A stretch of DNA of 20,000 nt from Trichoplax sp. H2. Lineage: Eukaryota. The notes under the pieces were generated by a model, which searched no databases, was not told the origin of the DNA, and saw only the letters and a program-made list of their open reading frames with translations. This document shows, piece by piece, positions 2-19,851 of this stretch (position 1 is its first letter; each line of letters begins with the position of its first letter). A program made the translations under genes and the position numbers. Where the stretch lies: the NCBI GenBank assembly GCA_003344405.1, contig NOWV01000014.1, positions 929,111-949,110 on the forward strand, in the 5' to 3' direction.

Positions 2-1291
2 CCATGGATTGCAATCGATTGCTTCTTGAAGCAGAACTTTACTGCGCACTTCTATTTTCTGTCTCATCTGCATCAAGACCATATGAAAGGACTCGATTCG
101 CCTGCTTTTAGAACTCACCTAAATGGACGACCGAAGTCTCGTATTTATTGCTCAGAGATTACCAAATCGATATTAATCAAAGATGCAAATTACTCCCACT
201 TAAAATTATTCCTTCAAAGTGTTCCCACCAATGACAAGATCTTCATTGAATTACAACAAACATTCGATACGTCGTATACTGAGATCGAGACGGTAGCAGT
301 TACATTTTTACCGTCTGGTCACTGTCCAGGATCGATGATGTTCTTATTGGAAGGTAAGCATGGCAACATACTTTATACTGGTGATTTTCGAATGGAGGGC
401 GATGAACATAAATTTATGGTATATAATTATCTAAGTGCAATCACCATTGATTCTGTCTATCTTGATACAACGTTTTGCCTACCTGAAATGATGACTATTC
501 CAAAGAGGAAAACTATTACAAAGCAGATCATCAACAAGATACAGCAATGGCTTTGTCAAGGTACCAATCATGTCGTTTGCCTTCGTTGTCGAGCAAGATT
601 AGGATATGAGTATTTATTATCTGAAATTGCCAAGAAGTTAAAGACGAAAATTCTCGTTCACAGCGATCAAATCAAACTCTATGATAATATACCTGAAGTT
701 CGATCCAATCTTACTTTAGTTGATAAAGAAACCAAAATTCATATGTGTATTAGAGGTAGATGTCGGCTTCTATCAGGGCCTCCCACACCTGATAGCAAGA
801 AATTGAAAATTTTACGTATTAAACCATGTGCATTATCATTCGCCTATAATATGGAAGCGTTGAAACAAGGCTGTTTTACCAGAGGTGCCAATTTTTACTC
901 GTTTCTATATTCTGCACACTCTTCTATGGCAGAAATTATAGAGTTTTTAAAATGCCTTCGTCCTTTAAAAGTTTATCCTAATGTCGTACCTGTGAAAGAT
1001 TCTGATCTCGATGCAGTCACACAAAGAATAAATGGTATTATGGGAAATTGCGATATTCCTCGTAAAAAGACAAAGATGACCGCATCTTGTAGTAATCCTG
1101 GCAAAGATCAAGGTAAAGAAATTTTACCATTGGAACCGATAGCAAATACTGATCTTGACTACAAAGCAAGCAGAAAAAAATCCGCTATTATGCAACTAAA
1201 TGACAAAAATTTGATGCTCGATGATGTCGATCCTTGCCAGCGTTTCATTTGCCGTAGGCGATCTCGAGATATTCAAAATAATAGTTCTTAA
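2..1291 (+). CDS. DCLRE1C: Artemis-like (SNM1C) DNA repair nuclease, metallo-beta-lactamase + beta-CASP; 5'-partial
   Basis: Frame is open from position 2 (PWIAIDCFLKQ..., cf. human Artemis YPTISIDRF), so the true start lies upstream of the window and the TTG at 26 is not the start. Motifs: FLSHLHQDHMKGL (human FLSHCHKDHMKGL), IYCSEITK, LPSGHCPGSMMFL, ILYTGDFR, SVYLDTTFC, LGYEYL, IHMC, IKP, YSAHSS, VYPNVVPV. These match Artemis better than SNM1A or Apollo. Stop TAA 1289-1291. Confidence 0.92.
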   Translation, partial: PWIAIDCFLKQNFTAHFYFLSHLHQDHMKGLDSPAFRTHLNGRPKSRIYCSEITKSILIKDANYSHLKLFLQSVPTNDKIFIELQQTFDTSYTEIETVAVTFLPSGHCPGSMMFLLEGKHGNILYTGDFRMEGDEHKFMVYNYLSAITIDSVYLDTTFCLPEMMTIPKRKTITKQIINKIQQWLCQGTNHVVCLRCRARLGYEYLLSEIAKKLKTKILVHSDQIKLYDNIPEVRSNLTLVDKETKIHMCIRGRCRLLSGPPTPDSKKLKILRIKPCALSFAYNMEALKQGCFTRGANFYSFLYSAHSSMAEIIEFLKCLRPLKVYPNVVPVKDSDLDAVTQRINGIMGNCDIPRKKTKMTASCSNPGKDQGKEILPLEPIANTDLDYKASRKKSAIMQLNDKNLMLDDVDPCQRFICRRRSRDIQNNSS

Positions 1292-5708: not shown

Positions 5709-5799
5709 ATGCTTATGATGTCACACCTTCAATTCTGTATAAATTTAATCAAAATTGCTAGCATTTTGATCCTTTCGATAATGATCAAATCGATTACAG
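5709..5799 (+). CDS. LRR gene exon 1: signal peptide
   Basis: MLMMSHLQFCINLIKIASILILSIMIKSIT(G); hydrophobic core; phase-1 donor G|gtaact. The start could be any of three ATGs. An acceptor-like ttcttgccag ending at 5695 suggests an upstream UTR exon. Confidence 0.75.
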
Positions 5800-8700
5800 G
5801 TAACTCCCAAAACTTTAAACAGAGTAGATCTTTGTTCGATTCAAATAGGCATAATACTCGTAGGTGCATGTTTGACGGAAGTTAAAATAAATCTTCACGG
5901 TTATTGAAATTAAGGGTTGCGATAAACATTCTATAATTTACATTGTGTTTAGTATTACATTTATAGTTGAATATGTAGAAGTAATTATATGTCATCTTTG
6001 TTATCAATTTTCAAATCTATTCTAGTAAATTAAAGTTATGATTCTCTTTTAGGAAACGTTAAATTATGTCCAGAGTTTTGCGTTTGTGATTCCAGCATAT
6101 TGCAGTGTAAACATGCTAGTATCAACAAGATTCCCGTAATAAATTCCTCACCAGATAAATATTTAGAAATGTAAGTTTATATAACAATTCTATTGGAACT
6201 ATATCTACAGCTGTTAATGGGGCCATTTCTGAAAAAGAATAAAAGATAAATTTAAATCTAAAAATTGTACGTGATATTGTTAGTCGTTACTAGTATATTT
6301 TTAATAACATAACTAAAATTATTACTACCAATCCTTTATTTATTACATTACTTTGCATAAGACTAGATATGTCCTATATTATGAATGCAATTGATAGTCA
6401 GAACGGATTAATGAGATACATACCCTAACTTATTCATTTTGCCATCACAGCAATAGCAATTAGCTTAGCTTCCTTTGCGTCCTTGGCACAATTAAACTAA
6501 ACTGGGAAATTATTGATACTAGGTTAAAAATTATATAATACCAGCGGAAATACGTTCCATGCTTATAATTACTTATCTTACTTCTCTGGAATTTCGCTAT
6601 AAAGCTAAGATATTTTGCTTCTAATATCACCATAATAGTCCATACTAACTTATGAGATGTATTTTAATTTATTTTATTATACTATACGTCGCGCGAAACT
6701 CAGTTTGTTCACATTTCTATCATTGAAATACTTAAAAGTGCTACATTAAAAATAGTCAGCAATGCAACGCGAACAAAGTCTGAATCGTCTTAAGACTTGA
6801 TATATAGTAGCATCACTATGCTTATATGATCTTTGGTACATCTAATCGAAATAAAATAAATTTATACTGATCCAGTATACTACTAATGTTTATTATTTCG
6901 GCTTTCTTTTCTAACGCTTTTACCGTAAGTTTGTACTAGTAAGACTGAACATCGGCAGGCATAAAAATTAACCCTGGCAATAATAATAGACAATAACTGA
7001 TAGTATTCCCAGATTATAAGATGCTATATAGAATTATCATGGAAACATGGCATTATTATATCCCTATCCTTTACAGTAAACTTCATTTATGATTTTAAAA
7101 TTGATTTTTTGCTATAGATTATAAAGTGTAATTAATAAAGATTTTACCAGGTGTATTAGCATACATCTTCACAACATTTTATTATTATTAATGATGCCCT
7201 AAATCAATAGGACTTCACATAAAATTTAAAATGGAAGCTCTATAAATTAAACATTCCATTTTTTCATTAATTCTTGCTTTTATTTAGGAGTATGTATGAA
7301 AATAGCATTAAAGTCATTAACCAAACCGACTTTATAATTTATCCGAATTTAGAAATCATGTAAGTAATTGAATACAGTGATACATATTTGTTAAAGTGAT
7401 AAGTAGTTTTCCATACCGACAAGATTTTATTAATTAACTGAAAGCTTTGATCTAATGTGCTAATTATTCATATAAAAGAGACCTAAGCAGTAACGGACTT
7501 GAAACGATCCAGCCTAATACATTTTGTCGAATCAGTGGGCTTCTAGAATTGTAAGCTCTTTATTTAATGCTTAATTATGATGTGCCTTAAGAAATATATT
7601 TAACTTTTCCTGATAGCTATAATAAGTGCGAAGACAAATTTAATTAGCTAAAGTGATCAAAGATATTTATATGAGCGCAATTTCTAACAAACTGAACCGA
7701 TTTAATCTAATAATAAAGGTACTTATCGTTCAACCAACTAGGAGAACTAAATAGCTCTAGCTTTAATTGCCTCAAGACTCTAAACGTTTTGTAAGTGATA
7801 ATGGATACTTTACAATGCTATTGTAACTTCACTAAAAAATATTAAAGGTAATATTATTTAATGATGGTCCATCTTTCGCCAAAATAAATAATTGATTACT
7901 CATGCTGATTCCAAACAGTGCAGTAAGTTATTAACGTAGCATCTAAGTATCATATTTCGGCAGTTTAATAGTTTATTTTCAGTTACGGACTGGTTTTACT
8001 GTTATATTAGTTCAAAGACTGCATTTCCTCGTATTAAATATCCTCAAAGTAAGAAATCACTTATGATCAAGCGAACACCAAAACAATAATTTAATATTTA
8101 AATTGAGTGTTACAAAACGGCTCTTCGACAAGATAATGTAATGTACAATCAATAAGTCGATTCCCTAAACTACGTATCAGGAAGCAATATCTACCCTGTC
8201 AGGAAGACTTTTCCTATACTAGTAGACTACATAAAGACTTAGACACCTCGTATTTTACGTTAAACACTAATCTCAAGAACTCCCTTTATTATGCGATATA
8301 CCGTATTTTTATACTCATTTACAATAGTTAGACATCCTAGTTAGTAATGTTAACGTTGAAACCTTCTAATGAATCAAAAGCTAATTTTATCTTCTGGTAT
8401 CTAATGAAGACAACAGTATATATGAACAGAGGCATCTAATGACTAAATACAAAATAGTCAGATTACAATATATCCTATCCCGGAATATTTCGATGATAAT
8501 CTACAATTTACCATAAGTAAGTTATACTCACAGTGATTTGAATTGTAACAAGATTATTCTGGATTTTATCAATTTCAGTATGCTATATGTATGTATATGT
8601 ATCACTACCATAAAAGCTAATACTCTATCACATATCTGAATCAAAATCTCACTAAATAAGGGTAAACCAACAAAATTATCCTAATATAGATATTTCGACT

Positions 8701-11700
8701 ATAATCTCGATATTACAGTGTATAACAACACTGTAACATTGAGACTTATTACTCTCATACTGTTGATGGAGCACGTATATATATATATCAAGCATGTAGA
8801 TAGGTTAAAATGCTATGCAAATGATAAAAGAGACGTATTAATGATATTTATTTGATATTTAAGGTAAATAATTTCAATAATATCGATAATTTTATTATAT
8901 CAATATGAACACGCATCAGATTATAATCACACATGAACCAAAAGAAATGATCTTCATTTTTGTTTATACTCGTATACTAGATTCAAAAGGGTGAATTAGT
9001 GAGATTTTATTATTGCTTCTATAGTTAGTGCTATAACAGTTTTCAGCTTGACTTTCTTTGGAATAGGAGCCTTGCAGTTGCTGAATTAACCGAAATTCCA
9101 GAAGATTTCTTTTGTTTGTTTCCTGAATTACAAGAATTGTATGTTAACAAAATTTCTTCTTAGCTTTAATTCTCTCCTAGTTAGCCTTCAATAGGAATGA
9201 TTCGGGTTCTCTTTTAGGATATATTATGGGAATTATTTAAAGGAAATACGCAATAATACCTTCGCCTGCCTTACCAAATTGACGTCTTTGTATGTTTTAA
9301 AAAGAATTGCTTTCCAAAATTTGTTAGCGTAGATTTATTAATACAGTAAGATTGTTTAAAATTTAATTTCCATCCTAGTAAATAAATTTTCGATTCTCAT
9401 CTGATTGAGAGCCATTAAGAATAGCAGATATCATGCCTAAAAAATTTTCCGTAATTATAGCTTATTAAAGATATTTTCTGATATGACTGCTTATCGTCGA
9501 TTACTTCAAACTGATAATAACATCAAAGCAAGAATTATAGTTATTGATATTGTAGTAATTTCATTGGCTTTAATCAAAGACAGATTCTTATATTATTTTT
9601 CCTGATGTAATTTGCAAAAGATTTAGTTAGCTTAAATAGAATATAAAATTAAGTTAATATGATATAATAATAGCCAGATAAATTGCGATAATAAATAAAT
9701 ACTCTATTGGGCTGAAATTATTTCTCCTATTAATAATTAAATTATTTAGCTATTATTTTTAAATTTGAATTCTATCACAGAGATTTAGCAATGAATGAAA
9801 TCTCCTACATTGCGAGGGACTCATTCAAAAGTTTAACTTCGCTCTCGGAAATGTATGATCTAGATTCACAATTTTATAAACTATCTTAATGATATCAGCT
9901 TCTTGGTTAAATAGCTATTATTGCATAAAATATTACGATAACTAATATCAATAATTTCTAGATATCTGTCATATAATATTTTAACTTCCTATAAAGAAAG
10001 CCTCTTTGGAAAAAATACCAATTTAAAATACTTGTAAGTGAGGTCTGCTTAGCCCAAAAGCTGTGACGACATTTAACATACTGTATTCAACTTAGCAACT
10101 TAGCAACAAAAGAGAAACGAATGCTTGTTAAGTCAAAACCTTCTAGTTTCTATGATATCGTACTTATTATTATATGAATACCTTCATAACTATCGATTTA
10201 GCCACAATAGAAGTACTTTAGTTTTACCACAGTGTAAATGTAAGATTAAAAAGTTATTAACATTGCAATATATAGTAATAAATGTTTTAAATATTAAAAT
10301 ATTCTCAGGTATCTTCACTTTAATTTAATCGAAGAGGTTGGAAGCTCAAGCTTCTGCGAATCGGAAGCTTTAGTCAACCTGTAAGAATTCTGTATTTTAT
10401 AGGATTTTTTAGTATGATCTATAGTTTAATGATTTCTTTAACGATTTATTTTTGAAGAGGTAGACGTTTGACTAATATGAATTTCTATTCTTGCTAACTT
10501 TACATAAGATATCTGCATGGTAATAAGTTAGAAGATATCAACAATCAGACCTTAGGTTGTTTAAAAAAATTACAAATATTGTAAGTTCTAGGCTTAAATA
10601 AATGTACGAACATTGTCATACTAAGTATTTCGAATAATTTTTAAGCATACGGTGCGAAAAATAACAGCTTTCAGAAAAGTAATAGTAACCTATTTACAAG
10701 ATGTCTGTAATCTAGATTTTATGCCATTGGCAATTTTAGGAGAATGTTGAACATTTCTTTCTTGCTATATGCGGTAGGGATATTTCGTTAAATCCAATCA
10801 AAACTATTCACCCTAATTCTTTTTGTGGTATGCAACGCTTACATACCTTGTAAGTATTATAAGAAGAATGAGCGTAATTTTAATTGAATTACTTATTTAC
10901 TGATATTTCGTTTTGTAATTCATCTATTTGAGATTTTATTGGTCAATGCTTTAGTTTATATTCTTTTATTTCACGTAGAAACATGAAAAAAGTTGATTTA
11001 ACGTACATCAATAAAAATGACTTCAACTGCTTGGATAACCTTCAGACCTTGTATGCTTTTATAGTATATGAAAACATAGAAATGAGATATTGCTACAAAC
11101 TATAAAGATTAAATATTAAATAGCATACCGTAGTATATCTATTCATACTTTGTTTTAATTATTCTACAAAGAATTAAGATGCCTTAATTGAATATATTTA
11201 TTGATAAGAACTTAACTAGGTATCATTCATCATAATAAAGATTATATTATTCATAATTTCTCCTTGTTGAATGTCAGAAATTTACAGGGCAGTGCTATTA
11301 AGAATATAGAAAAAGACTCATTCTGCCATACTCCAGGATTGAGCAGCTTGTACGAATTTCAAAGAATAGATATTAAAATTTTGGAGTTATGCGAGCATAT
11401 GACTAAGCGCTAGCCTACTATACAAATTGTTTGAGATATTTTAATGGCTGCCATTGTAAAACGAGTTATTGCAAAACATAGTTTGTAACAATCTATTTTT
11501 AAAAGATATTGTAACTTTAGATTCGTGCAGATATATTATCAGGACTTCCATTTAGCCTAACAAAAACTAATCTATATATTTTTGTAATGATTATAATTTA
11601 CTCTCCTAATCTTAGGACCATAGAAAGATGCGAACTTGATGAAATAAGAAAGGATACCTTTGCTTGTTTAACAAAATTGGAAACCTTGTAGGTTCTGAAC

Positions 11701-14700
11701 GGTTATCTAGCGAGACCCCATTAGTACAAATTTATGTTAATATAATATGCAAAGAGATAACTTATACCTAGATCGTAGAGGTCTAAAAATAACGTTTCAT
11801 TTATGTATCGATTAAAGAAAAATAGGAATGAATAAGATCTTGAATATAGAACCAAAATCCTTCCAACAGTTAAAAAGTTTGAAGAATCTGTACGTCTTTG
11901 TCAACGTTAACAGTATCTAATTCTTTTTTGGATTACTGTACTTGAGGATTATTTCTAACGGCAAAGATTAACATATCCGTTTTCCGCACCTAATTAATTC
12001 GCAGGTATCTGAATGACAATAACCTTAAACATATATCCAACGCGACCTTCTTCGGATTGAAAAGTTTAACAGTGCTGTAAGTTTACTGTTTATTGTTAGT
12101 GATACAAAGAAAAAATCATTAGTTATTTTAGTGCTTATATCGTAGTTACAAATTAGGTGATTAAAACGATAAAGAAAAGTAAATATAGATACAAAATTAG
12201 GCGATATCAACCAAGATCATGAGTTTCTAACAAGAAATAACAATAAATTCACTAATTAAAAGTTACAAAAATTTTTGGATATTACGACTTTGGGGTTTGC
12301 CAAATACATCCGTTTACCAAGTTTTACGTAATTAAAGTTAATGTCGATGTCATAATATATAGTGTTACCTTTGAATTTGAATGATATAACTTATATCGAA
12401 ATAATAATTGCATTTAGCTAAAGTGCATTCTTATTTTCCGTCTATCCAGCTAGTGATTAGTTGAGTATAGCTAATTAGCTATTTCTAACACTTATACAAC
12501 AATTACCGATAGATATCAATTAGAGATAATTTAGTCGACGAACAGAATTAATATGATCTCTAAATATTTTTAGTATAATACAACCTTTGCTAAAGGTAGT
12601 AAATTACAACCTATTTTGCTATAAAATAGCATCTAATATGTAAATCTCTCTTTGATAACATATTACTAAGTTCAATATTTTTATATTCTGCAGTAATGTA
12701 GGTGTTAATAGCATATACTCAATTCCTGCGAATACATTTTGCCATACCTATAATTTGTTGCAGTTGTATGTATTATATCTACTCGTATACCTGCTTTTAA
12801 TTCGAAATTTTTTGTTACGAAAATTGATGTTACACTTCGATTACTTACGATATTGCCCTTTTTTAACTTATAACTTTATGATTTTAAGTTATTTGTATCG
12901 ATTATTTTCAGGTACTTAACGCAGAATTTCATTAGCGATATTTCTAGCGAAACATTCAAATGTCTCTATCGCTTACGAAATCTGTAAGTAGTTTCCTTTG
13001 AGGATGTATGATCTTGCTGTCGGGCATTAGTTGCTTAGCACACAGTATCTGAAATATTTTCTTATTTCACAATATTTGATATTTTATTTAAATTACAGAT
13101 TTATCAGTATCAATTCTATTGAATCTCTTGAAAAGGGCTCGTTCAAGTATTTAAAAAGTTTATCAAATCTGTACGTTTTTAACTACTAGAAACTTCTTAA
13201 AATCTTTGGCAGTCTATCATTATGGTAATGTTTTAACTTAAATTAGTTCAAATGTACCTGGCTAAGTTTTACTTCCGCTACTAGGCACATGAATTCAAAC
13301 AGCATTTCAAATATCAGTGTCGGTGCATTTCAGGGTCTTGCATCAGTAACGTATATGTAAGCGTCATATATATATTAAATTACGATATATAAAACGCGCG
13401 TATTGATGTTATTTGCAGATATTAACCTTAAAGGTAAATGGGAATTTACACGTTTCTAGGGATTTTTCAGATAATCTAATTCCTGAATTATTTCCATTTC
13501 GAAATATAAGCTTGCTATCCACACTGTATGTAAATTTATTTGTTCAAGAAAACACTATCGTTTAGTGTGAATTTATAGGCTAATATCAATTGCAGTTTCC
13601 TGTAGCGTAGCTGATGTGGGTTTTCCACGTAAGTTTAGTAATATATTTGGAAGCTAACTTAGCATAATTCAATTTTAATAAAAATAGTATTCTGGATGAA
13701 AACATTGTTACATCTATTGAAAATAATGCATTTGAAGGCACAAATCAGCTGCAGAAACTGTTTGTATAAAAATACCTAAAAATTAAGTGGCAATACAGAT
13801 CTTGTATTGAATTTACTTATTTATTCTTTTAGCTTAATTTAATGTTTTATTTCACACCTATATAGGTCCATAAATACGAATAAAATTTCTGTAATTGACT
13901 CTTTTGCTTTGAAGGATCTAACAAAGCTTAGAGAATTGTAAGTGTGCAATTACCTTTGAGAGGCTCATTATGTTTATCAGTTTATGTTGCCTATTAATTA
14001 TTTGATCGGGTAAAGCCTATTCGGGTAAAAAGTCTATATTGTCATTACTTTCCTTGCTGAAGTAAAATATCTGTAACTTTACGAGTTATTATAGCATATG
14101 CTTAAATCTATCCTAATAGGTAATATATGTTAACCTTAACTTATGTTTTATATCAGTAAAATAGGCCATAATTTGTTGGTTTAGTGCTTTTACGATACGT
14201 AAAATAGCTCAGTTGTGTATTGATATACTTTATGTCGAATTAAATTATCAGATACTTTCGTTATGGCGGATCATTTAGTCTGATATTCATGGAGTACTAC
14301 TGTATTCTTCGGTACTAAAATCAATAAGGTTTAATCTGTATTAATCTTGCACATTAGTAAAAATTCTTAAGTATGTGGATTGACCTTATGAATTGCCTAA
14401 ATTAGAAAACTTAGCGGAAATCCTTTAAGAAATTTTTCTGGTTTATTCTTACCTGACAGTATCAACATGACATCTTTGTAAGTGTTAGCAGCTACGCTAA
14501 TCTAGGTATGTGCATAGACTTAGTATTTGAATAAATCACACTAATAGATTTGTAACTTGATACCTAGCGAGCTTTCAAGTCTTAATATTCATCAATTCCG
14601 CCAGCTAAATATAACTGGTACAACAAATATTTTGTAAGTTCAGTTAGAGTACTAATTTGAATCGTCTATCTATTTCTAATGCTATTGAATATGGTAAGGG

Positions 14701-17700
14701 CAACAAGTTATACAATAAGGCTACCGAACAAATTTGGATTTTAATTGCTTTATATTCTGTTGATCTATCGCTAATAACTGATAGCATTTTGTATATATGT
14801 TTACGAGTAACATAACGAGATTCGTCTATATGAAGATTATAATCTCAATAAATGGTTGAATTTTATCATCAGAGATCTGTCTTCGAATCACATGGATGAT
14901 CTTACCAGATTTCAATTTTGTGATTGTTTAACCTTGTAAGTTTATCATTAGAGATTTATTTCTTTACAATTGCATTTTGAAAGCTAGTAGAACGCTTTAG
15001 AACTCTAGCAGTTCTAGTAACGCTAAATTATTGTCTGAGGAATACATAGTTAAGCCTCAAACTCGACAGGAAAATAAATTCCCTTCAAATTTGAAACAGC
15101 TTTCACTTTTAGCATTAAGCTAGTTTGAAAGTTTCTTCATTAATACAAGTTATAATACGCTATATTTCAGAAATCTTTCTCAAAACAAATTGGCATATTC
15201 TAGAAAGATGAATTTTTCGTCGTGGCCATCGTTAACACAACTGTAAGTTACGGTTAAATACTTGTATCTTGCGTAAATGATTTTATTTAATCTGAGTTAC
15301 TTGCGACGGAACTCACGGTGTTACTTACAAGGGAATAATATCAGCATTATGCTTTCCTGATTCGGATTTCAGCGATTTATCGAAAAACAGATTTAAAGTC
15401 ATTGATTGGCAGACATTTTTAACGCTAAAGTTTCCTCAAAAGTTGAAGATAATGTTTGTATCAAAACTTTTGCATGATTATCATCTCTTAACATGTACAA
15501 TTGAATGCAAGGACGGCACTATATACCACACAAACTATTATCGGTACCCCAGTTTCATTGCACTACAGTGAAAGATTGAAAGAATCGCTATCGATTAGTA
15601 TACTGTTGTCACGAAAGTTATCTTCGTGGCATATACTTTATTTCTATGTTACGTTCTATATATGTTTGTATCTCAGAAATGTTTTACGGTTTCCTTAATT
15701 GTAATCTTAGTGGTTAACAGTTAATATCCTTAATTTAGGATTACATAGACTAAAATAGTAATTGACAACCAGCTAAACTGGATTATATCTATCACCTCCA
15801 AGTTGTTAAGGTTCAAAGTACAATTCCTAAGTTTATAGGAAATGTCATAATAGGATAGCTTTATGTGTATCTGTTAAACTAATAATAAGCATTGATTATT
15901 TTAATACTGTTACAGTAAATTTAATACGATTAAACTGTATCTAATTGGTACAGATAGAATCTCTTTAGGATATTAATTTGGTTAATTTCTAATAGACGAG
16001 GTGACTTTTGTAGCTAAACCGATTTTAGGTCCGAAACCTATATAAACGGCGAGTTCGCCAACAATAAATTAGATTGTGATTTTCTATTAAGTCTTGAAGG
16101 TCTCCCTACGTTGAACCCTATCTGCCTTGGAATACCAATTGTCTGGTATTCCAAATAACTGTAGTAAAGGGTAGAAGTCACTCTCTTAATACTTGTTGCA
16201 AGATAGGGTTAATCCTAATTCCTAACAACTGTATACGCAGTACTTTCCATAGTAAATAACATTTTTAAGGCAAAATTTTGCTTCCGAATTGAGTCTCTAA
16301 AAACTGTCAAAGACAAGCTTTGCCTTTATGGATATGAACATTTTAACGATTTAAGTATTAGAATTAAGTTCTGTGCTACTTAAATACTGTTCTACTGCGT
16401 CATTAAAATAATTTTTTTAAGTAGAGATTTAAGTTTGATTGTCTATTCTAAACGATGCATTCTAAAACGTAATTAAGTGACACTCGATCCTAAAGATCTT
16501 ACTTAATTAACAGTTTGTTATTACTAGACATTGATATGAAACTTACAGTTACGAATTTTTTCTAAAATCAAGTCAAAAGACATGAAAAGTACTCTTATCT
16601 CCGTAATCTTACTAGGAATCTATCTGAAAATCTCTTGCAATTGATCCATGCAAGAACATTCTCAACAATGCCGACTTTGGAACGGTTGTAAGTAGCTTTA
16701 TCCTATAGTATATATTACAATAAAATTAGAATTTTAATTTATTGTATTTTACGAATCTTCTCGATAAAGATAAATATATAATATTTTACCGAAAACGCCT
16801 TCAAAATATTTTTTTGATCAAAACTTATATTAATCTCTCGTAAAGGTATTGTCAATCAAATGAATTGAAGGAATTGAGTTTCCTAAGATCTTTGTCAGGT
16901 CTTAAATACCTGTATGTAAAACATTAGGCTAATAAGTACATATTAAGGCCATTATCTATATTATGTAAAAATATTTTATACGTGTGGTGTGTGCCTATAG
17001 CAGTACATAGTCCGATATACGAGTACAGAAAGTGAGGATTTGTAAAAATCATAAATAAGGCACGTGAACATAATACGAACGACGAGTGCACTGCATATCT
17101 TTAGAGGGCGTATTTACAAACGTTCGAGTACGCTTATTCACGTTATAAATTCATGATGAGCGATAAAAAATTGCCACAAGCTAAATTTTTCAGCAGAATA
17201 GTAATACCAATTCTAGTGTTTTATAGATACTGTATAAGATTTTAAAAAATGGCTCAAATGCTAACATTTACTTACTGTAATCAAAGCTCTCTAGTTGATA
17301 ACGAAATTATTACATTGAATAAAGAAGACTTCGCCAATTTAACGCAACTTGAAGAATTGTAAGCTATGCTTGTAAATTTCAAACATTGTAAATGCAATTG
17401 ATTTTAAAATATGAAAAGGGAATATGTGAATTTGCCGAGTAAATATATAATTATCGCGCAACGACATGATATTTTCTAGCCTATTTCTCTTCAGGTTTTG
17501 AATACTGTGATATTCTTATTCTATAAAAAACTCTGCATAATAGTACAAAAGATTTACTTCCGGCCAGCTGATGCCAAAATATCAGCACAAATTACTAATT
17601 CATATACATAACAGGATATTACGGTAGTATTTTACCGTGTATGATTTTCTTAGATTTTTAGACAAAAATTTTATTAAAGCTATGACCAATGACTACTTTA

Positions 17701-19851
17701 CAAACACTAGGCTGCAAGTGCTGTAAGTGCTTTTCACTTCTACAATTAGATTTGCAATAGATAAATTATGCAATCCAATGTACGTAGACTATATTGAATT
17801 CTATAAATAAAATTTACTATATGCTGCTGCCACAGATCACTAGCGAAGAATGATATTCACACAATAACGAATGCTTTCCATGGTTTGTCGTCTCTCAAAA
17901 CCCTGTAAGTGGCAATTTGCATAATAGGAATTTTCTATCTAGTAAACCAAGCTGAGATAAAAAGAATGTTTATAAACCCCAATAGATTGTAAGTTAATAA
18001 ATTGCAGCACTCCAAAGGGTCAGTGTTGGTTTGCAAGCTGGCTTTGATAGCCTGTGTAGATATATTGAATAATGGAATACTTAGGCTAGCAAGGTCACTA
18101 AACAGAATATTCTTATTCTGTTGTCCCGGTTAGAGGTAGTAATCAATTTACAAATATTCGCTTCTATATGAGAATAAACAGCGGATAATTAATTGATATT
18201 GTAACCCAAAGATAATTCGTCCAAAATCTTTATCGAGCTTTAATATTTAAACGTAATATAATTCTAATAGGTATAGGGTATTAAATATAAATACTTTAGA
18301 GAGCATAGTAGAGCTCGTGCATTATTTAATATATGCGTACTTAATCTAATGACCCTATAATAGTCTAAAAGATATTTTATATTATTTCTGATGCTATGTC
18401 AATGACATAAGCAGATCATTAATCAGTTCCTTTTAATTGATTTCTTCTATTCTTAATTGTAATTCCGCTGAAAGAAATTTGGATAGCAACAAAATAGATA
18501 ATTTGACTGGAATATTTGTAGAAAGACTTTCAAATTTAACTGAACTGTAAGATATTAATCTTTGGCGTACATTTGCTTACGTGTTCTCAACTTTAATTCG
18601 TCATATTGAAAACTGTATCAAATATGGAGCGAATTTTGGTTTCAAATAAAGTTGAATAAGATAGACTTTACAGTTGACTGCATATTATTCAACCTGTAGT
18701 TTGAATTAACATTTATTCAGATCAATGCAGCATAACTTGATCGGATCATTAGAAGGGAATTCATTAAGAAATTTAATTTCCATGACGCACTTGTAAGTGT
18801 TTGCTTTGAAATTCAGTAGGCTTAATCAGTCGAATTTGATGAGTTTGAGAAGTCATTTCGTAAATGCATAGAGAATTTGTACTAAAACCATCGTAGTCTG
18901 AGCTTCAGTACAATTGGAATAATTTTATCATTAACTTTTTGATTTAATTTTCAGGAATTTTTACGGAAATAAGTTGTCTTCAATTAGTAATCTAATGTAT
19001 TGGAATTTTGTGAGATTGTATGCTGGGAAGAATATTTTTGTGTTCAATATTTTATTAGTATTTTAATAATCATATATCATTTAAAACTCATAAAACAATT
19101 TTAAAAGTTGATATAAGGAACCACTAGCCATGTAGTATCAACAACCGAGCCAAATAGATTGAGAAAAATGATTAATTGATAATTTGATTAATTATTAGAT
19201 CTGTCGGAAATAATAAGCTAAATACTTTATCATGTTCTGAACTACCCTACAACACCTACGAATTGTAAGCTTTTTCCGTAAATTTAAATTTTGTAGCCTA
19301 AAATTCCGTTAGCCGGCTTTTTCCTTAAGCTTGAATCAGTATTGTTGCGAATAATTTTACTACTTCATTGCAGAGATCTGAGCAAGAATAATATATCTAA
19401 GATTGACTCAAATTGTAAACATATCTTAGGCCAAATTGCTATACTGTAAGCATTGAACATTTTATGTTGTTCAATTTTTTTGAGATAAACGCGAGCGAAT
19501 AAACTGCGAGCATAATGACCGTTATATTTTAATTTCAGGGATCTTAGCTGTAATCAATTAGTAAGCAATGGCATTAACATTCAGAAAGATATATTGGAAA
19601 AACTACATTTTGTAGTGTCATTGTAGGTTGCATTTCGAGTTATTAGAATTAATTCAAAATAGTTAGAATTCCTTTCTTATAAGACATCATTTATATAAAT
19701 AGGTTCCTAGCAAGCTATAAGATGCTATTTTTAAATTTTGAGCTACAAATTTAACTTGCATTTTAATTTGATTATTCCAATTCAGGAAATTAGCAGGTAA
19801 CAACATCGCAGAGCTACAAAATCCAATTAGACATTTCAATTTGTTGAATCT
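5709..19851 (+). CDS. Multi-exon extracellular LRR protein (signal peptide + LRRNT + >=39 LRRs), 3'-partial; possibly the ectodomain of an LGR-type GPCR or other LRR receptor
   Basis: 41 exons with AG/GT borders splice into one open frame of 2984 nt (about 994 aa). LRR consensus LxLxxNxIxxIxxxxFxxLxxLxxL. More than 15 N-x-S/T sequons. No stop, LRRCT or transmembrane segment before the window ends. Confidence 0.9.
6053..6170 (+). CDS. LRR gene exon 2: LRRNT cap
   Basis: ttttag|(G)NVKLCPEFCVCDSSILQCKHASINKIPVINSSPDKYLE|gtaagt; CPxxCxCxxxxxxC motif; phase 1 to 2. Confidence 0.9.
7288..7359 (+). CDS. LRR exon 1 (72 nt)
   Basis: tttag|SMYENSIKVINQTDFIIYPNLEI|gtaagt. Confidence 0.88.
7479..7550 (+). 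CDS. LRR exon 2 (72 nt)
   Basis: aaag|DLSSNGLETIQPNTFCRISGLLE|gtaagc. Confidence 0.88.
7719..7790 (+). CDS. LRR exon 3 (72 nt)
   Basis: aaag|YLSFNQLGELNSSSFNCLKTLNV|gtaagt. Confidence 0.88.
8705..8744. repeat. Intronic inverted repeat, 17-bp arms (15/17 match), 6-nt loop
   Basis: TCTCGATATTACAGTGT-ataaca-ACACTGTAACATTGAGA. Confidence 0.7.
9067..9138 (+). CDS. LRR exon 4 (72 nt)
   Basis: aatag|SLAVAELTEIPEDFFCLFPELQE|gtatgt. Confidence 0.86.
9218..9289 (+). CDS. LRR exon 5 (72 nt)
   Basis: ttttag|IYYGNYLKEIRNNTFACLTKLTS|gtatgt. Confidence 0.88.
9781..9852 (+). CDS. LRR exon 6 (72 nt)
   Basis: cacag|DLAMNEISYIARDSFKSLTSLSE|gtatga. Confidence 0.9.
9962..10033 (+). CDS. LRR exon 7 (72 nt)
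   Basis: ttctag|YLSYNILTSYKESLFGKNTNLKY|gtaagt. Confidence 0.9.
10309..10380 (+). CDS. LRR exon 8 (72 nt)
   Basis: tctcag|YLHFNLIEEVGSSSFCESEALVN|gtaaga. Confidence 0.9.
10509..10580 (+). CDS. LRR exon 9 (72 nt)
   Basis: cataag|YLHGNKLEDINNQTLGCLKKLQI|gtaagt. Confidence 0.88.
10778..10849 (+). CDS. LRR exon 10 (72 nt)
   Basis: ggtag|DISLNPIKTIHPNSFCGMQRLHT|gtaagt. Confidence 0.9.
10979..11050 (+). CDS. LRR exon 11 (72 nt)
   Basis: cgtag|NMKKVDLTYINKNDFNCLDNLQT|gtatgc. Confidence 0.88.
11278..11349 (+). CDS. LRR exon 12 (72 nt)
   Basis: gtcag|NLQGSAIKNIEKDSFCHTPGLSS|gtacga. Confidence 0.87.
11616..11687 (+). CDS. LRR exon 13 (72 nt)
   Basis: cttag|TIERCELDEIRKDTFACLTKLET|gtaggt. Confidence 0.88.
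11818..11889 (+). CDS. LRR exon 14 (72 nt)
   Basis: ttaaag|KIGMNKILNIEPKSFQQLKSLKN|gtacgt; weak acceptor. Confidence 0.82.
12005..12076 (+). CDS. LRR exon 15 (72 nt)
   Basis: cgcag|YLNDNNLKHISNATFFGLKSLTV|gtaagt. Confidence 0.92.
12694..12765 (+). CDS. LRR exon 16 (72 nt)
   Basis: ctgcag|NVGVNSIYSIPANTFCHTYNLLQ|gtatgt. Confidence 0.9.
12912..12983 (+). CDS. LRR exon 17 (72 nt)
   Basis: tttcag|YLTQNFISDISSETFKCLYRLRN|gtaagt. Confidence 0.92.
13099..13170 (+). CDS. LRR exon 18 (72 nt)
   Basis: ttacag|FISINSIESLEKGSFKYLKSLSN|gtacgt. Confidence 0.9.
13285..13356 (+). CDS. LRR exon 19 (72 nt)
   Basis: actag|HMNSNSISNISVGAFQGLASVTY|gtaagc. Confidence 0.92.
13460..13525 (+). CDS. LRR exon 20 (66 nt)
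   Basis: ttctag|DFSDNLIPELFPFRNISLLST|gtatgt. Confidence 0.87.
13688..13759 (+). CDS. LRR exon 21 (72 nt)
   Basis: aatag|ILDENIVTSIENNAFEGTNQLQK|gtttgt. Confidence 0.87.
13866..13937 (+). CDS. LRR exon 22 (72 nt)
   Basis: tatag|SINTNKISVIDSFALKDLTKLRE|gtaagt. Confidence 0.9.
14406..14477 (+). CDS. LRR exon 23 (72 nt)
   Basis: attag|KLSGNPLRNFSGLFLPDSINMTS|gtaagt. Confidence 0.87.
14568..14633 (+). CDS. LRR exon 24 (66 nt, irregular)
   Basis: cctag|ELSSLNIHQFRQLNITGTTNI|gtaagt. Confidence 0.8.
14873..14935 (+). CDS. LRR exon 25 (63 nt)
   Basis: atcag|DLSSNHMDDLTRFQFCDCLT|gtaagt. Confidence 0.86.
15171..15242 (+). CDS. LRR exon 26 (72 nt)
   Basis: tttcag|NLSQNKLAYSRKMNFSSWPSLTQ|gtaagt. 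Confidence 0.9.
15373..15453 (+). CDS. LRR exon 27 (81 nt)
   Basis: tttcag|DLSKNRFKVIDWQTFLTLKFPQKLKI|gtttgt. Confidence 0.83.
16127..16154. repeat. Intronic perfect inverted repeat, 11-bp arms, 6-nt loop
   Basis: TTGGAATACCA-attgtc-TGGTATTCCAA. Confidence 0.7.
16616..16687 (+). CDS. LRR exon 28 (72 nt)
   Basis: actag|NLSENLLQLIHARTFSTMPTLER|gtaagt. Confidence 0.92.
16846..16911 (+). CDS. LRR exon 29 (66 nt)
   Basis: gtaaag|YCQSNELKELSFLRSLSGLKY|gtatgt. Confidence 0.86.
17287..17358 (+). CDS. LRR exon 30 (72 nt)
   Basis: tcaaag|SLVDNEIITLNKEDFANLTQLEE|gtaagc. Confidence 0.88.
17654..17722 (+). CDS. LRR exon 31 (69 nt)
   Basis: tcttag|FLDKNFIKAMTNDYFTNTRLQV|gtaagt. Confidence 0.88.
17836..17904 (+). 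CDS. LRR exon 32 (69 nt)
   Basis: cacag|SLAKNDIHTITNAFHGLSSLKT|gtaagt. Confidence 0.9.
18475..18546 (+). CDS. LRR exon 33 (72 nt)
   Basis: gaaag|NLDSNKIDNLTGIFVERLSNLTE|gtaaga. Confidence 0.87.
18721..18792 (+). CDS. LRR exon 34 (72 nt)
   Basis: attcag|SMQHNLIGSLEGNSLRNLISMTH|gtaagt. Confidence 0.9.
18955..19017 (+). CDS. LRR exon 35 (63 nt)
   Basis: tttcag|NFYGNKLSSISNLMYWNFVR|gtatgc. Confidence 0.83.
19199..19264 (+). CDS. LRR exon 36 (66 nt)
   Basis: attag|SVGNNKLNTLSCSELPYNTYE|gtaagc. Confidence 0.85.
19374..19445 (+). CDS. LRR exon 37 (72 nt)
   Basis: ttgcag|DLSKNNISKIDSNCKHILGQIAI|gtaagc. Confidence 0.9.
19539..19622 (+). CDS. LRR exon 38 (84 nt)
   Basis: tttcag|DLSCNQLVSNGINIQKDILEKLHFVVS|gtaggt; an internal gtaagc at 19561 is out of phase. 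Confidence 0.8.
19786..19851 (+). CDS. LRR exon 39 (66 nt); gene continues past the window
   Basis: attcag|KLAGNNIAELQNPIRHFNLLN|gtaagt. Confidence 0.87.

Follow-up and report, generated by a model that had tools for sequence, protein, structure and literature searches.

Cysteine pairs recur at a fixed spacing in the LRR array of a giant placozoan receptor and, judging from the sequence, most likely form disulfide staples in series along its outer half. Within the window, which is the whole stretch of 20,000 nucleotides analysed here, lies the 5' portion of a giant placozoan LGR composed of a signal peptide, an LRRNT, 46 one-exon LRRs, a Cys-rich hinge, and a 7TM. In the N-terminal third of this receptor (repeats 2-17 of 46), six exons carrying a Cys at Phe+1 (type A) are each followed by an exon carrying a Cys at Phe+2 (type B). 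Such Cys doublets occur in about 11 genes, the window gene and about ten relatives, at 2-8 per protein. The whole explanation, in which ear-less LRRCE-like staples multiplied by doublet duplication stiffen the membrane-distal solenoid of a giant LGR, is considered quite probable.

Architecture of the receptor gene

All features lie on the + strand. Coding exon 1 (5709..5799), read from the letters, begins with the ATG at 5709 and encodes a hydrophobic, signal-peptide-like stretch called by eye; an RNA contig spans 5709-5797 and joins to 6051/6053. The next exon (6053..6170), delimited by its translation and the RNA joints 5799>6053 and 6170>7288, encodes an LRRNT cap with four Cys (C-x3-C-x-C-x6-C), matching the known LRRNT pattern CxnCxCxmC (PMC2637281), and its 38-aa piece gave no match in Pfam. 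LRR exon 1 (7288..7359), defined by RNA joints, is devoid of Cys. Downstream of the doublets, LRR exons 18-39 (13099..19851) measure 63-84 nt, are all in phase 2/2, and contain no A/B doublets. They were delineated from sequence and from the RNA joints 13759>13866, 13937>14406, 18546>18721, 19264>19374, 19445>19539, and 19622>19786, with the exon at 15373-15453 being a prediction alone. RNA runs with small shares served as a source of joints, and expression levels were left aside. Extra exons within the 1276-nt intron 7791-9066 were ruled out because RNA joins 7790>9067. All LRR exons of the gene are frame-symmetric. RNA contigs, which drop rare forms, cover 15 of 31 joints, and none of these skips an LRR exon, whether singly or in the pairs that the earlier note on this DNA had predicted.

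The gene extends past the end of both window and contig and resumes on contig G000:C819. The RNA loose end at 19851 carries 8 letters that open the first LRR exon of C819, and this exon also supplies the missing repeat positions of the window gene; the link thus consists of these 8 letters and the repeat order, with no contig bridging the gap. The continuation was located via a 7TM search, and a DNA-pattern search for the next exon missed it (30 matches vs 27 in the control). Its ORF, L066:2042-3190, matches PF00001 (E 4.7e-27), i.e., a rhodopsin-family 7TM. With 39 exons in the window and 7 on C819, some of them predicted only, the LRR count reaches 46. The hinge on C819 reads C-C ... C ... 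S-C and is common to 14 paralogs. An earlier note on this DNA had described an uncapped solenoid; the RNA-joined LRRNT exon and the Cys-rich hinge contradict that description. The window protein, bearing 17 sequons besides its signal peptide, LRRNT, and 7TM, is extracellular by its predicted anatomy.

According to the available part of a study of Trichoplax LGRs, 41 of 46 are Trichoplax-specific and share with the present receptor very many LRRs, an own Cys-rich hinge, and a rhodopsin-family 7TM; Tadh-LGR-15 has 34 LRRs as compared with 46 here, and that part of the text makes no mention of Cys pairs inside the LRR array (PMC9545775). One paralog carries the name GRL101-like in public records.

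Cysteine doublets in the window and its paralogs

Doublet 1 comprises exon 2 (A, TFC; 7479-7550) and exon 3 (B, FNC; 7719-7790), whose joint 7550>7719 is present in two RNA runs. Exon 4 (FFC; 9067-9138) and exon 5 (FAC; 9218-9289) form doublet 2, joined in RNA at 9138>9218, and the joints 7359>7479, 7790>9067, and 9289>9781 surround these two doublets. A Cys-less doublet follows in exons 6 and 7 (9781..10033), with an A-like and then a B-like profile and the RNA joint 9852>9962. Doublets 3 (exon 8, SFC, 10309-10380; exon 9, LGC, 10509-10580) and 5 (exon 12, SFC, 11278-11349; exon 13, FAC, 11616-11687) were read from sequence, and doublet 4 (exon 10, SFC, 10778-10849; exon 11, FNC, 10979-11050) has the RNA joint 10849>~10979. 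After a second Cys-less doublet, assigned by sequence profile to exons 14 and 15 (11818..12076), the series ends with doublet 6, likewise read from sequence (exon 16, TFC, 12694-12765; exon 17, FKC, 12912-12983). All twelve doublet exons are 72 nt long, in phase 2/2, and bounded by GT-AG, and the Cys-Cys spacing in each doublet is exactly 25 residues in the spliced frame. In exon 13, the Asn-ladder position is occupied by an additional Cys.

The six pairs had been listed in the earlier note and were all recovered, each A exon being followed by a B exon; the translations also bear out its statement that exons 6, 7, 14, 15, and 18-24 have no Cys. Its claim that none of these convex-side Cys is unpartnered holds for exons 2-17 (6/6 paired); outside the range of that note, exon 25 (14873-14935) reads F-C-D-C and its Phe+1 Cys has no type-B partner in exon 26. 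Of the 37 adjacent exon pairs called in the window, six have the A-then-B order and neither type applies to the other 31 (Fisher p = 4.3e-7). None of 20000 exon-order shuffles reached six A>B pairs (maximum 5), and the same held when the first 20 exons alone were shuffled.

The pairing extends to the paralog family. In 15 other genes with 526 adjacent pairs, a B exon comes directly after 65 of the 68 A exons, and two B exons occur without A. Shuffling this set gave at most 23 A>B pairs, or 33 vs 62 observed for the first 20 exons. The order is strict (A>A 1/74, B>B 0/73, A>B two exons on 1/74), and 64 of 71 pairs are spaced at 25 residues; since the genes are paralogs, these 71 pairs represent far fewer independent events. 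The exon caller left the Cys columns unscored and made no call on 599,281 reversed bases. The count omits C35 (2/2 paired) and C553 (4/4 paired) as near-copies of other loci, the rearranged fragments of C438 (0/3 A exons with B), C186, in which no exon was called, and single pattern matches on 20-odd other contigs. A scan for the B pattern gave 63 matches vs 22 in the control, with 16 of the 63 lying outside the comparison. Doublets are absent from the LGR genes C125, C303, and C785, and C125 has two lone Cys. The 7TM tree covers loci of this genome alone and resolves 2 of 11 inner branches.

By their residues, A and B exons are two sequence classes that differ beyond their Cys: with Cys masked, a leave-one-gene-out classifier recognised 70 of 73 A exons and 60 of 72 B exons. 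In 20 of 21 cases, the Cys-less gap separating two doublets has an even number of exons. Where such a gap consists of two exons, the first resembles A in 15/15 and the second resembles B in 11/15. Additionally, introns are short within doublets (median 152, n = 71) vs after them (406, n = 73). C161b contains an exact additional copy of one A exon.

Joint change of the two Cys is seen in C191, which has both at a doublet where its relatives C161a, C161b, C311a, and C311b have neither; the close relatives of C191 in this comparison are 63-73% identical to C311b. Secure alignment holds for this one co-change, deeper repeat alignments being ambiguous, and gain/loss counts between distant paralogs (32-40% identity) were dropped for the same reason. 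The earlier note had regarded independent loss of the two Cys in homologues as evidence against the proposed staples. The Cys are mostly paired, as the 65 of 68 A exons with B indicate, yet single losses do occur: the B Cys is Tyr (TAT) at C219:421126, and the A Cys is Ser (AGT) at C504:4798.

Structural register and known disulfide pairs

Since a search of the public collection with the 46-aa LRRNT frame gave 3 unscored candidates for the window protein, a paralog stretch with two doublets was modelled as a stand-in. Alignment-based AlphaFold2 folded this stretch into a regular solenoid of the typical class at pLDDT 98, all four Cys lying outside the strands; the closest folds are Nogo receptor and LRRTM2. 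Sequence position and this model put the doublet Cys on the convex faces of neighbouring internal repeats, with no lateral extension. In a 12-exon profile, the two Cys columns align to Cys284 (after Phe) and Cys317 (Phe+2) of decorin (1xcd/1xku). When two stretches carrying doublets were searched against PDB sequences, no chain with both Cys appeared among the five alignments listed for each; decorin emerged from the exon profile alone. As a background, 6822 repeat cores from 164 other LRR proteins contain 3 such Cys pairs; three unrelated proteins have the same register, and their listed repeats contain no Cys apart from the pair.

The closest known analogue is the LRRCE of canonical SLRPs such as decorin and biglycan (PDB 1XKU/1XCD), in which a Phe+1 Cys bonds to a Phe+2 Cys across consecutive LRRs, the pattern being hydrophobic-C ... 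F-x-C with its two Cys disulfide-bonded (PMC2637281). Unlike the LRRCE, the window doublets have no ear, with 4 residues after the first Cys instead of 7-20 and 7 residues before the second Phe instead of 8-9. Moreover, they are internal, sixfold, and part of a GPCR, whereas the LRRCE occurs once, always C-terminally, in a secreted SLRP. The strict LRRCE pattern had 0 matches on the window gene and its ear-less core had 6. Decorin has one or two more residues in its second repeat and the ear on its first, which makes the geometry similar to that of the doublets, not identical.

Disulfides had been thought, in the earlier note, to be mostly confined to the caps. This is not supported, as the literature already describes disulfide-bonded pairs of internal LRRs in organisms ranging from bacteria to humans (PMC2637281), and convex bonds between adjacent repeats exist in TLR3 (one pair) and plant TDR/PXY (LRR13-14, LRR18-19) (PMC2637281, PMC4979064, PMC4856767). 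The staple itself is therefore not new, and its description as categorically new was rejected. Alignment places the first Cys of mouse TLR3 at the type-A position, with its partner at Phe+3 vs Phe+2 in the window doublets; TLR3 and TDR have one or two pairs per protein, unlike the 2-8 placozoan doublets with their fixed two-repeat register and Phe+2 Cys. Such bonds number about five in BRI1, and LGR4/5, TLR1/2/4, and CD14 have one pair each; the residues are Cys281/Cys306 in TLR4 and C95/C122 in TLR3. The searches made gave no instance of the staple used serially as a two-exon unit. Repeated adjacent-repeat Cys pairs, mostly gained and lost together, are also present in chaoptin-like proteins of parasitoid wasps (Diachasma alloeum P0050, P0090; Cotesia congregata P0169). 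Their register differs from the placozoan one in that both Cys lie at Phe+1 and the first repeat is short, and they are apparently an independent solution. The family pairing and the decorin LRRCE register lend good support to the convex-side inter-repeat disulfide and 48-aa two-exon unit that the earlier note had put forward, a reading that stays predictive.

Proposed mechanism and alternatives

In the proposed mechanism, the N-terminal third of the receptor has its repeats in a two-repeat register, and the Phe+1 Cys of one repeat would form an intrachain disulfide with the Phe+2 Cys of the next on the convex face in the secretory pathway. Such a staple would correspond to the decorin LRRCE bond without its ear. 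The doublet, i.e., exon A, a short intron, and exon B, may have multiplied through tandem duplication, after which single doublets would have kept or lost both Cys jointly. Up to eight staples could clamp adjacent turns and stiffen the membrane-distal solenoid or fix its curvature, leaving the concave face free.

The two sequence classes and the short doublet-internal introns make doublet duplication likely. They would suit a Cys pattern that is a mere trace of two-exon tandem duplication, with the Cys kept separately or by inertia and unbonded, and the two single-base losses of one partner also fit. This is nevertheless very unlikely, as both Cys persist although repeats within one gene are only about 22-43% identical, the Cys-less doublets miss both Cys rather than one, and the register recurs in decorin and three unrelated proteins. 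Surface thiols bonding between chains or distant turns, as in dimers or a folded-back solenoid, would be favoured by the exposure of the Cys on the convex face, by an array of 46 repeats that could curve past one turn, and by the intermolecular disulfide of mosquito LRIM1 and APL1C (PMC4361550). The strict A-then-B adjacency and the fixed spacing are what a local bond predicts, and interchain bonding would not require that order, leaving this arrangement very unlikely. Two close thiols can also bind metal or act as a redox switch, here tuning the shape of the receptor, and His or Asp follows the Cys in some A exons. There is no conserved third ligand, Gly being the residue after the A Cys in 39%; extracellular Cys pairs of this sort are usually oxidised, and the known analogues are structural bonds, so that only a very slim chance is given to this role.

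Beyond the intrachain staple favoured here, a bolder version is regarded as rather doubtful. The A-B doublet would then be a true building block copied in series into a disulfide-locked rod at the receptor tip, differences among paralogs in the number and position of staples would tune curvature and thereby the range of ligands, and the chordate LRRCE cap would derive from the ear-less unit by homology instead of convergence.

The doublets would represent a natural, many-times-repeated disulfide staple within LRRs that are otherwise regular and 24 residues long. Their exact sequence rule (Phe+1, then Phe+2, at a distance of 25 residues) could be transferred to LRR scaffolds made by design. They form a higher-order two-repeat unit within a one-exon-per-repeat gene, distinguish one subfamily within the unexplained expansion of placozoan LGRs, and link the chordate LRRCE cap to a broader internal motif. 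Furthermore, they provide a check on gene models, as an A exon without a B exon usually means a missed exon. Another kind of adjacent Cys pair is present in the exons at 19199 and 19374.

Paired cysteines in the window gene

The gene in the window is one of the placozoan giant hormone-type receptors (LGRs; LRRs, hinge and 7TM). A scan of the window for AG-exon-GT units recovered twelve 72-nt exons between 7479 and 12983, with the positions and motifs that the earlier note had described. These exons form six couples, or doublets, in which a type A exon, with Cys directly after the conserved Phe (Phe+1), is followed by a type B exon with Cys at Phe+2. In the spliced frame, the two Cys of every pair are 25 residues apart. 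Among the 37 adjacent exon pairs called in the window, A is followed by B in 6 and neither type occurs in 31, and 0 of 20000 exon-order shuffles attain six A-B pairs. The six couples are real, and Cys pairing is a strongly non-random feature of the gene.

Other Cys are also present in the array. Exon 13 carries one more Cys, in the Asn-ladder position, whereas the short exon 25 (14873-14935) reads F-C-D-C without a B partner. The first Cys of exon 25 is particular to the window gene; the second is common to many paralogs, and neighbouring repeats offer it no obvious partner. Additionally, the C-terminal half has another kind of Cys pair on adjacent repeats, which most paralogs keep: a 24-residue pair at 19199/19374 (region 19199-19445) and a 28-residue pair in the final repeats ahead of the hinge, on a stretch of contig C819 (L066:969-1416).

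Pairing and co-change across the paralog family

The ends of A exons, searched as a DNA pattern, have 73 matches in the Trichoplax genome vs 6 in the control, grouped on roughly twelve contigs. The paralog set consisted of these groups plus four loci matching LRRNT; neither Cys column was scored in exon calling, and the caller made 0 calls on a reversed control. Of 526 adjacent pairs from 15 other genes or fragments, 65 are A-B, 3 have an A lacking its B, 2 have a B lacking its A and 456 have neither; shuffled paralog exons gave at most 23 A-B pairs. Picking the loci by A leaves the rate of A followed by B unbiased. A separate, independent pattern for B matched 63 times (22 in the control), and 47 of these matches fall within the loci of the set. 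The spacing among 71 pairs is 25 residues in 64, 24 in 6 (second repeat shortened) and 26 in 1. Left out of the count were the near-copies C35 and C553 (6/6 paired) and the rearranged C438 (0/3 paired). Doublets are absent from the genes C125, C303 and C785. In C125 (L049-L050; C125:151765, 151579), two neighbouring repeats have a Cys at matching places in the ascending loop, which may be a third staple geometry. For the C300 paralog, the public gene models (P0001, P0003 vs L033-L034) omit LRR exons, including the B exons 18481 and 19388, so that A Cys there appear falsely unpaired.

The earlier note took its staples to be open to refutation by independent loss of the two Cys. Joint change largely prevails. 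At one doublet, gene C191 carries both Cys and four close relatives carry neither, three of these relatives grouping with C191 at clade support 100/99. Of 21 Cys-less gaps between doublets, 20 span an even number of exons, and the A-like then B-like order persists in such gaps. Moreover, with Cys masked, the classes are still separable (70/73 A exons, 60/72 B exons), and introns inside doublets are shorter. These observations point to a two-exon duplication unit whose Cys appear and vanish together, although the paralogs are not independent of one another, which weighs against the co-change evidence. The exceptions are single-base changes that removed one Cys of a pair in C219 and in C504, and an additional, exact copy of an A exon in C161b.

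Structural register and known disulfide-bonded repeats

A 120-residue stretch of the paralog protein P0003, with two doublets, was folded on a 30-row alignment in place of the window protein, for which no public record was found. The model is a regular solenoid (pLDDT 98) with Cys outside the strands, and the nearest folds are the Nogo receptor and LRRTM2. In a twelve-exon profile, the Cys columns align to decorin Cys284, which directly follows a Phe, and Cys317, at Phe+2. Cys284-Cys317 is the LRRCE disulfide of decorin, and the published LRRCE pattern shares the doublet register (PMC2637281). The strict LRRCE pattern has no match in the window protein; the ear-less core has six. The best structural evidence for the putative staple is this likeness to the decorin LRRCE.

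According to PMC2637281, which names TLR3, ear-less disulfide-bonded pairs of internal LRRs turn up now and then from bacteria to humans. Plant TDR/PXY has two convex-side bonds, each linking a repeat to its neighbour (PMC4979064, PMC4856767). In the mouse TLR3 sequence, the first Cys is at the type A position as in the placozoan doublet, but its partner is at Phe+3 instead of Phe+2. The placozoan doublet would work like the LRRCE bond and the TLR3/TDR internal pairs, without being an LRRCE itself. BRI1, LGR4/5, TLR1/2/4 and CD14 are further examples of such pairs. The A-B register occurs 3 times in 6822 repeat cores of 164 other LRR proteins, a sample ranked by LRR number and not by Cys, which bounds the background and is no proof of absence elsewhere. 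The three cases lie one each in P0024, P0031 and P0042, unnamed proteins of 3000-3600 aa that combine LRR, cadherin-like and dockerin domains; reprolysin is also present in two of these proteins. Parasitoid-wasp chaoptin-like proteins (P0050, P0090, P0169) have repeated Cys pairs in adjacent repeats, as do the placozoan LGRs, but in another register (Phe+1/Phe+1); these pairs are mostly gained or lost together.

The Cys pairs are most probably serial intrachain convex-side disulfides in a subfamily of placozoan giant LGRs, where they would presumably have a stiffening role. What is new here is the repetition of the proposed staple and its two-exon unit. A search of open-licence papers found no description of the placozoan pairs, and none stands in the passages covered from PMC9545775, PMC4079206 and PMC6321704.

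Gene model and surrounding observations

The spliced frame is open for 993 codons from 5712, with ATG at 5709; all introns are GT-AG and all LRR introns are phase 2. RNA contigs from two runs recorded as RNA connect 5799 to 6053 and 6170 to 7288, and they link LRR exons 1-7 consecutively, as well as several exons further downstream. No skipped LRR exon was found among the 15 of 31 joints shown in RNA contigs, and the proposed skipping of exons in pairs has no support. The solenoid, earlier thought to be uncapped, is capped, because exon 6053-6170 carries the four-Cys LRRNT pattern (as quoted in PMC2637281).

The window ends at the contig end. With the hinge of a paralog as query, a genome search listed 65 places with an LGR-type 7TM, one of which sits 2 kb into C819. 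The first LRR exon of C819 opens with the same 8 letters as an RNA loose end at window 19851, and seven C819 LRR exons match the repeats that come next in paralogs. The frame then runs through a Cys-rich hinge and PF00001, ending soon after TM7, beyond which the window gene may have a spliced-on tail. The resulting gene model comprises a signal peptide, LRRNT, 46 LRRs, hinge and 7TM, with the C819 join drawn from the 8 letters and the repeat order. A public Trichoplax protein named GRL101-like is 100% identical to one paralog locus, and a 2022 review (PMC9545775) counts 41 LGRs that are specific to Trichoplax and have very large numbers of LRRs.

Some paralog loci show irregular structures. 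In C161a (L012-L015, C161:188458-214551), a block of some 16 exons that begins with an A exon is repeated within the gene, and a TAG stands in frame close to the hinge. C438 (L044-L046) holds rearranged, truncated LGR copies; both loci are read as pseudogenes or assembly artefacts. Judged by exon order, the C418 gene probably carries on in C504 and the C504 gene in C252, with one identical exon shared (L024, L057, L067, L068), which would make them a tandem LGR cluster split over contigs.

Within the window, a 429-aa open frame off the window start (2-1291, forward strand), intron-free in the part seen, has a PF07522 DNA-repair metallo-beta-lactamase domain, presumably of Artemis/SNM1 type. 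Intronic stretches at about 8270-8730 and 15720-16170 have deep, divergent contig cover with loose ends in several runs, and are read as multi-copy repeats or small mobile elements. Furthermore, contigs of the RNA run X9 at 7719-7889 and 18721-19264 extend from exons into or through introns, which is read as unspliced precursor or intron retention.
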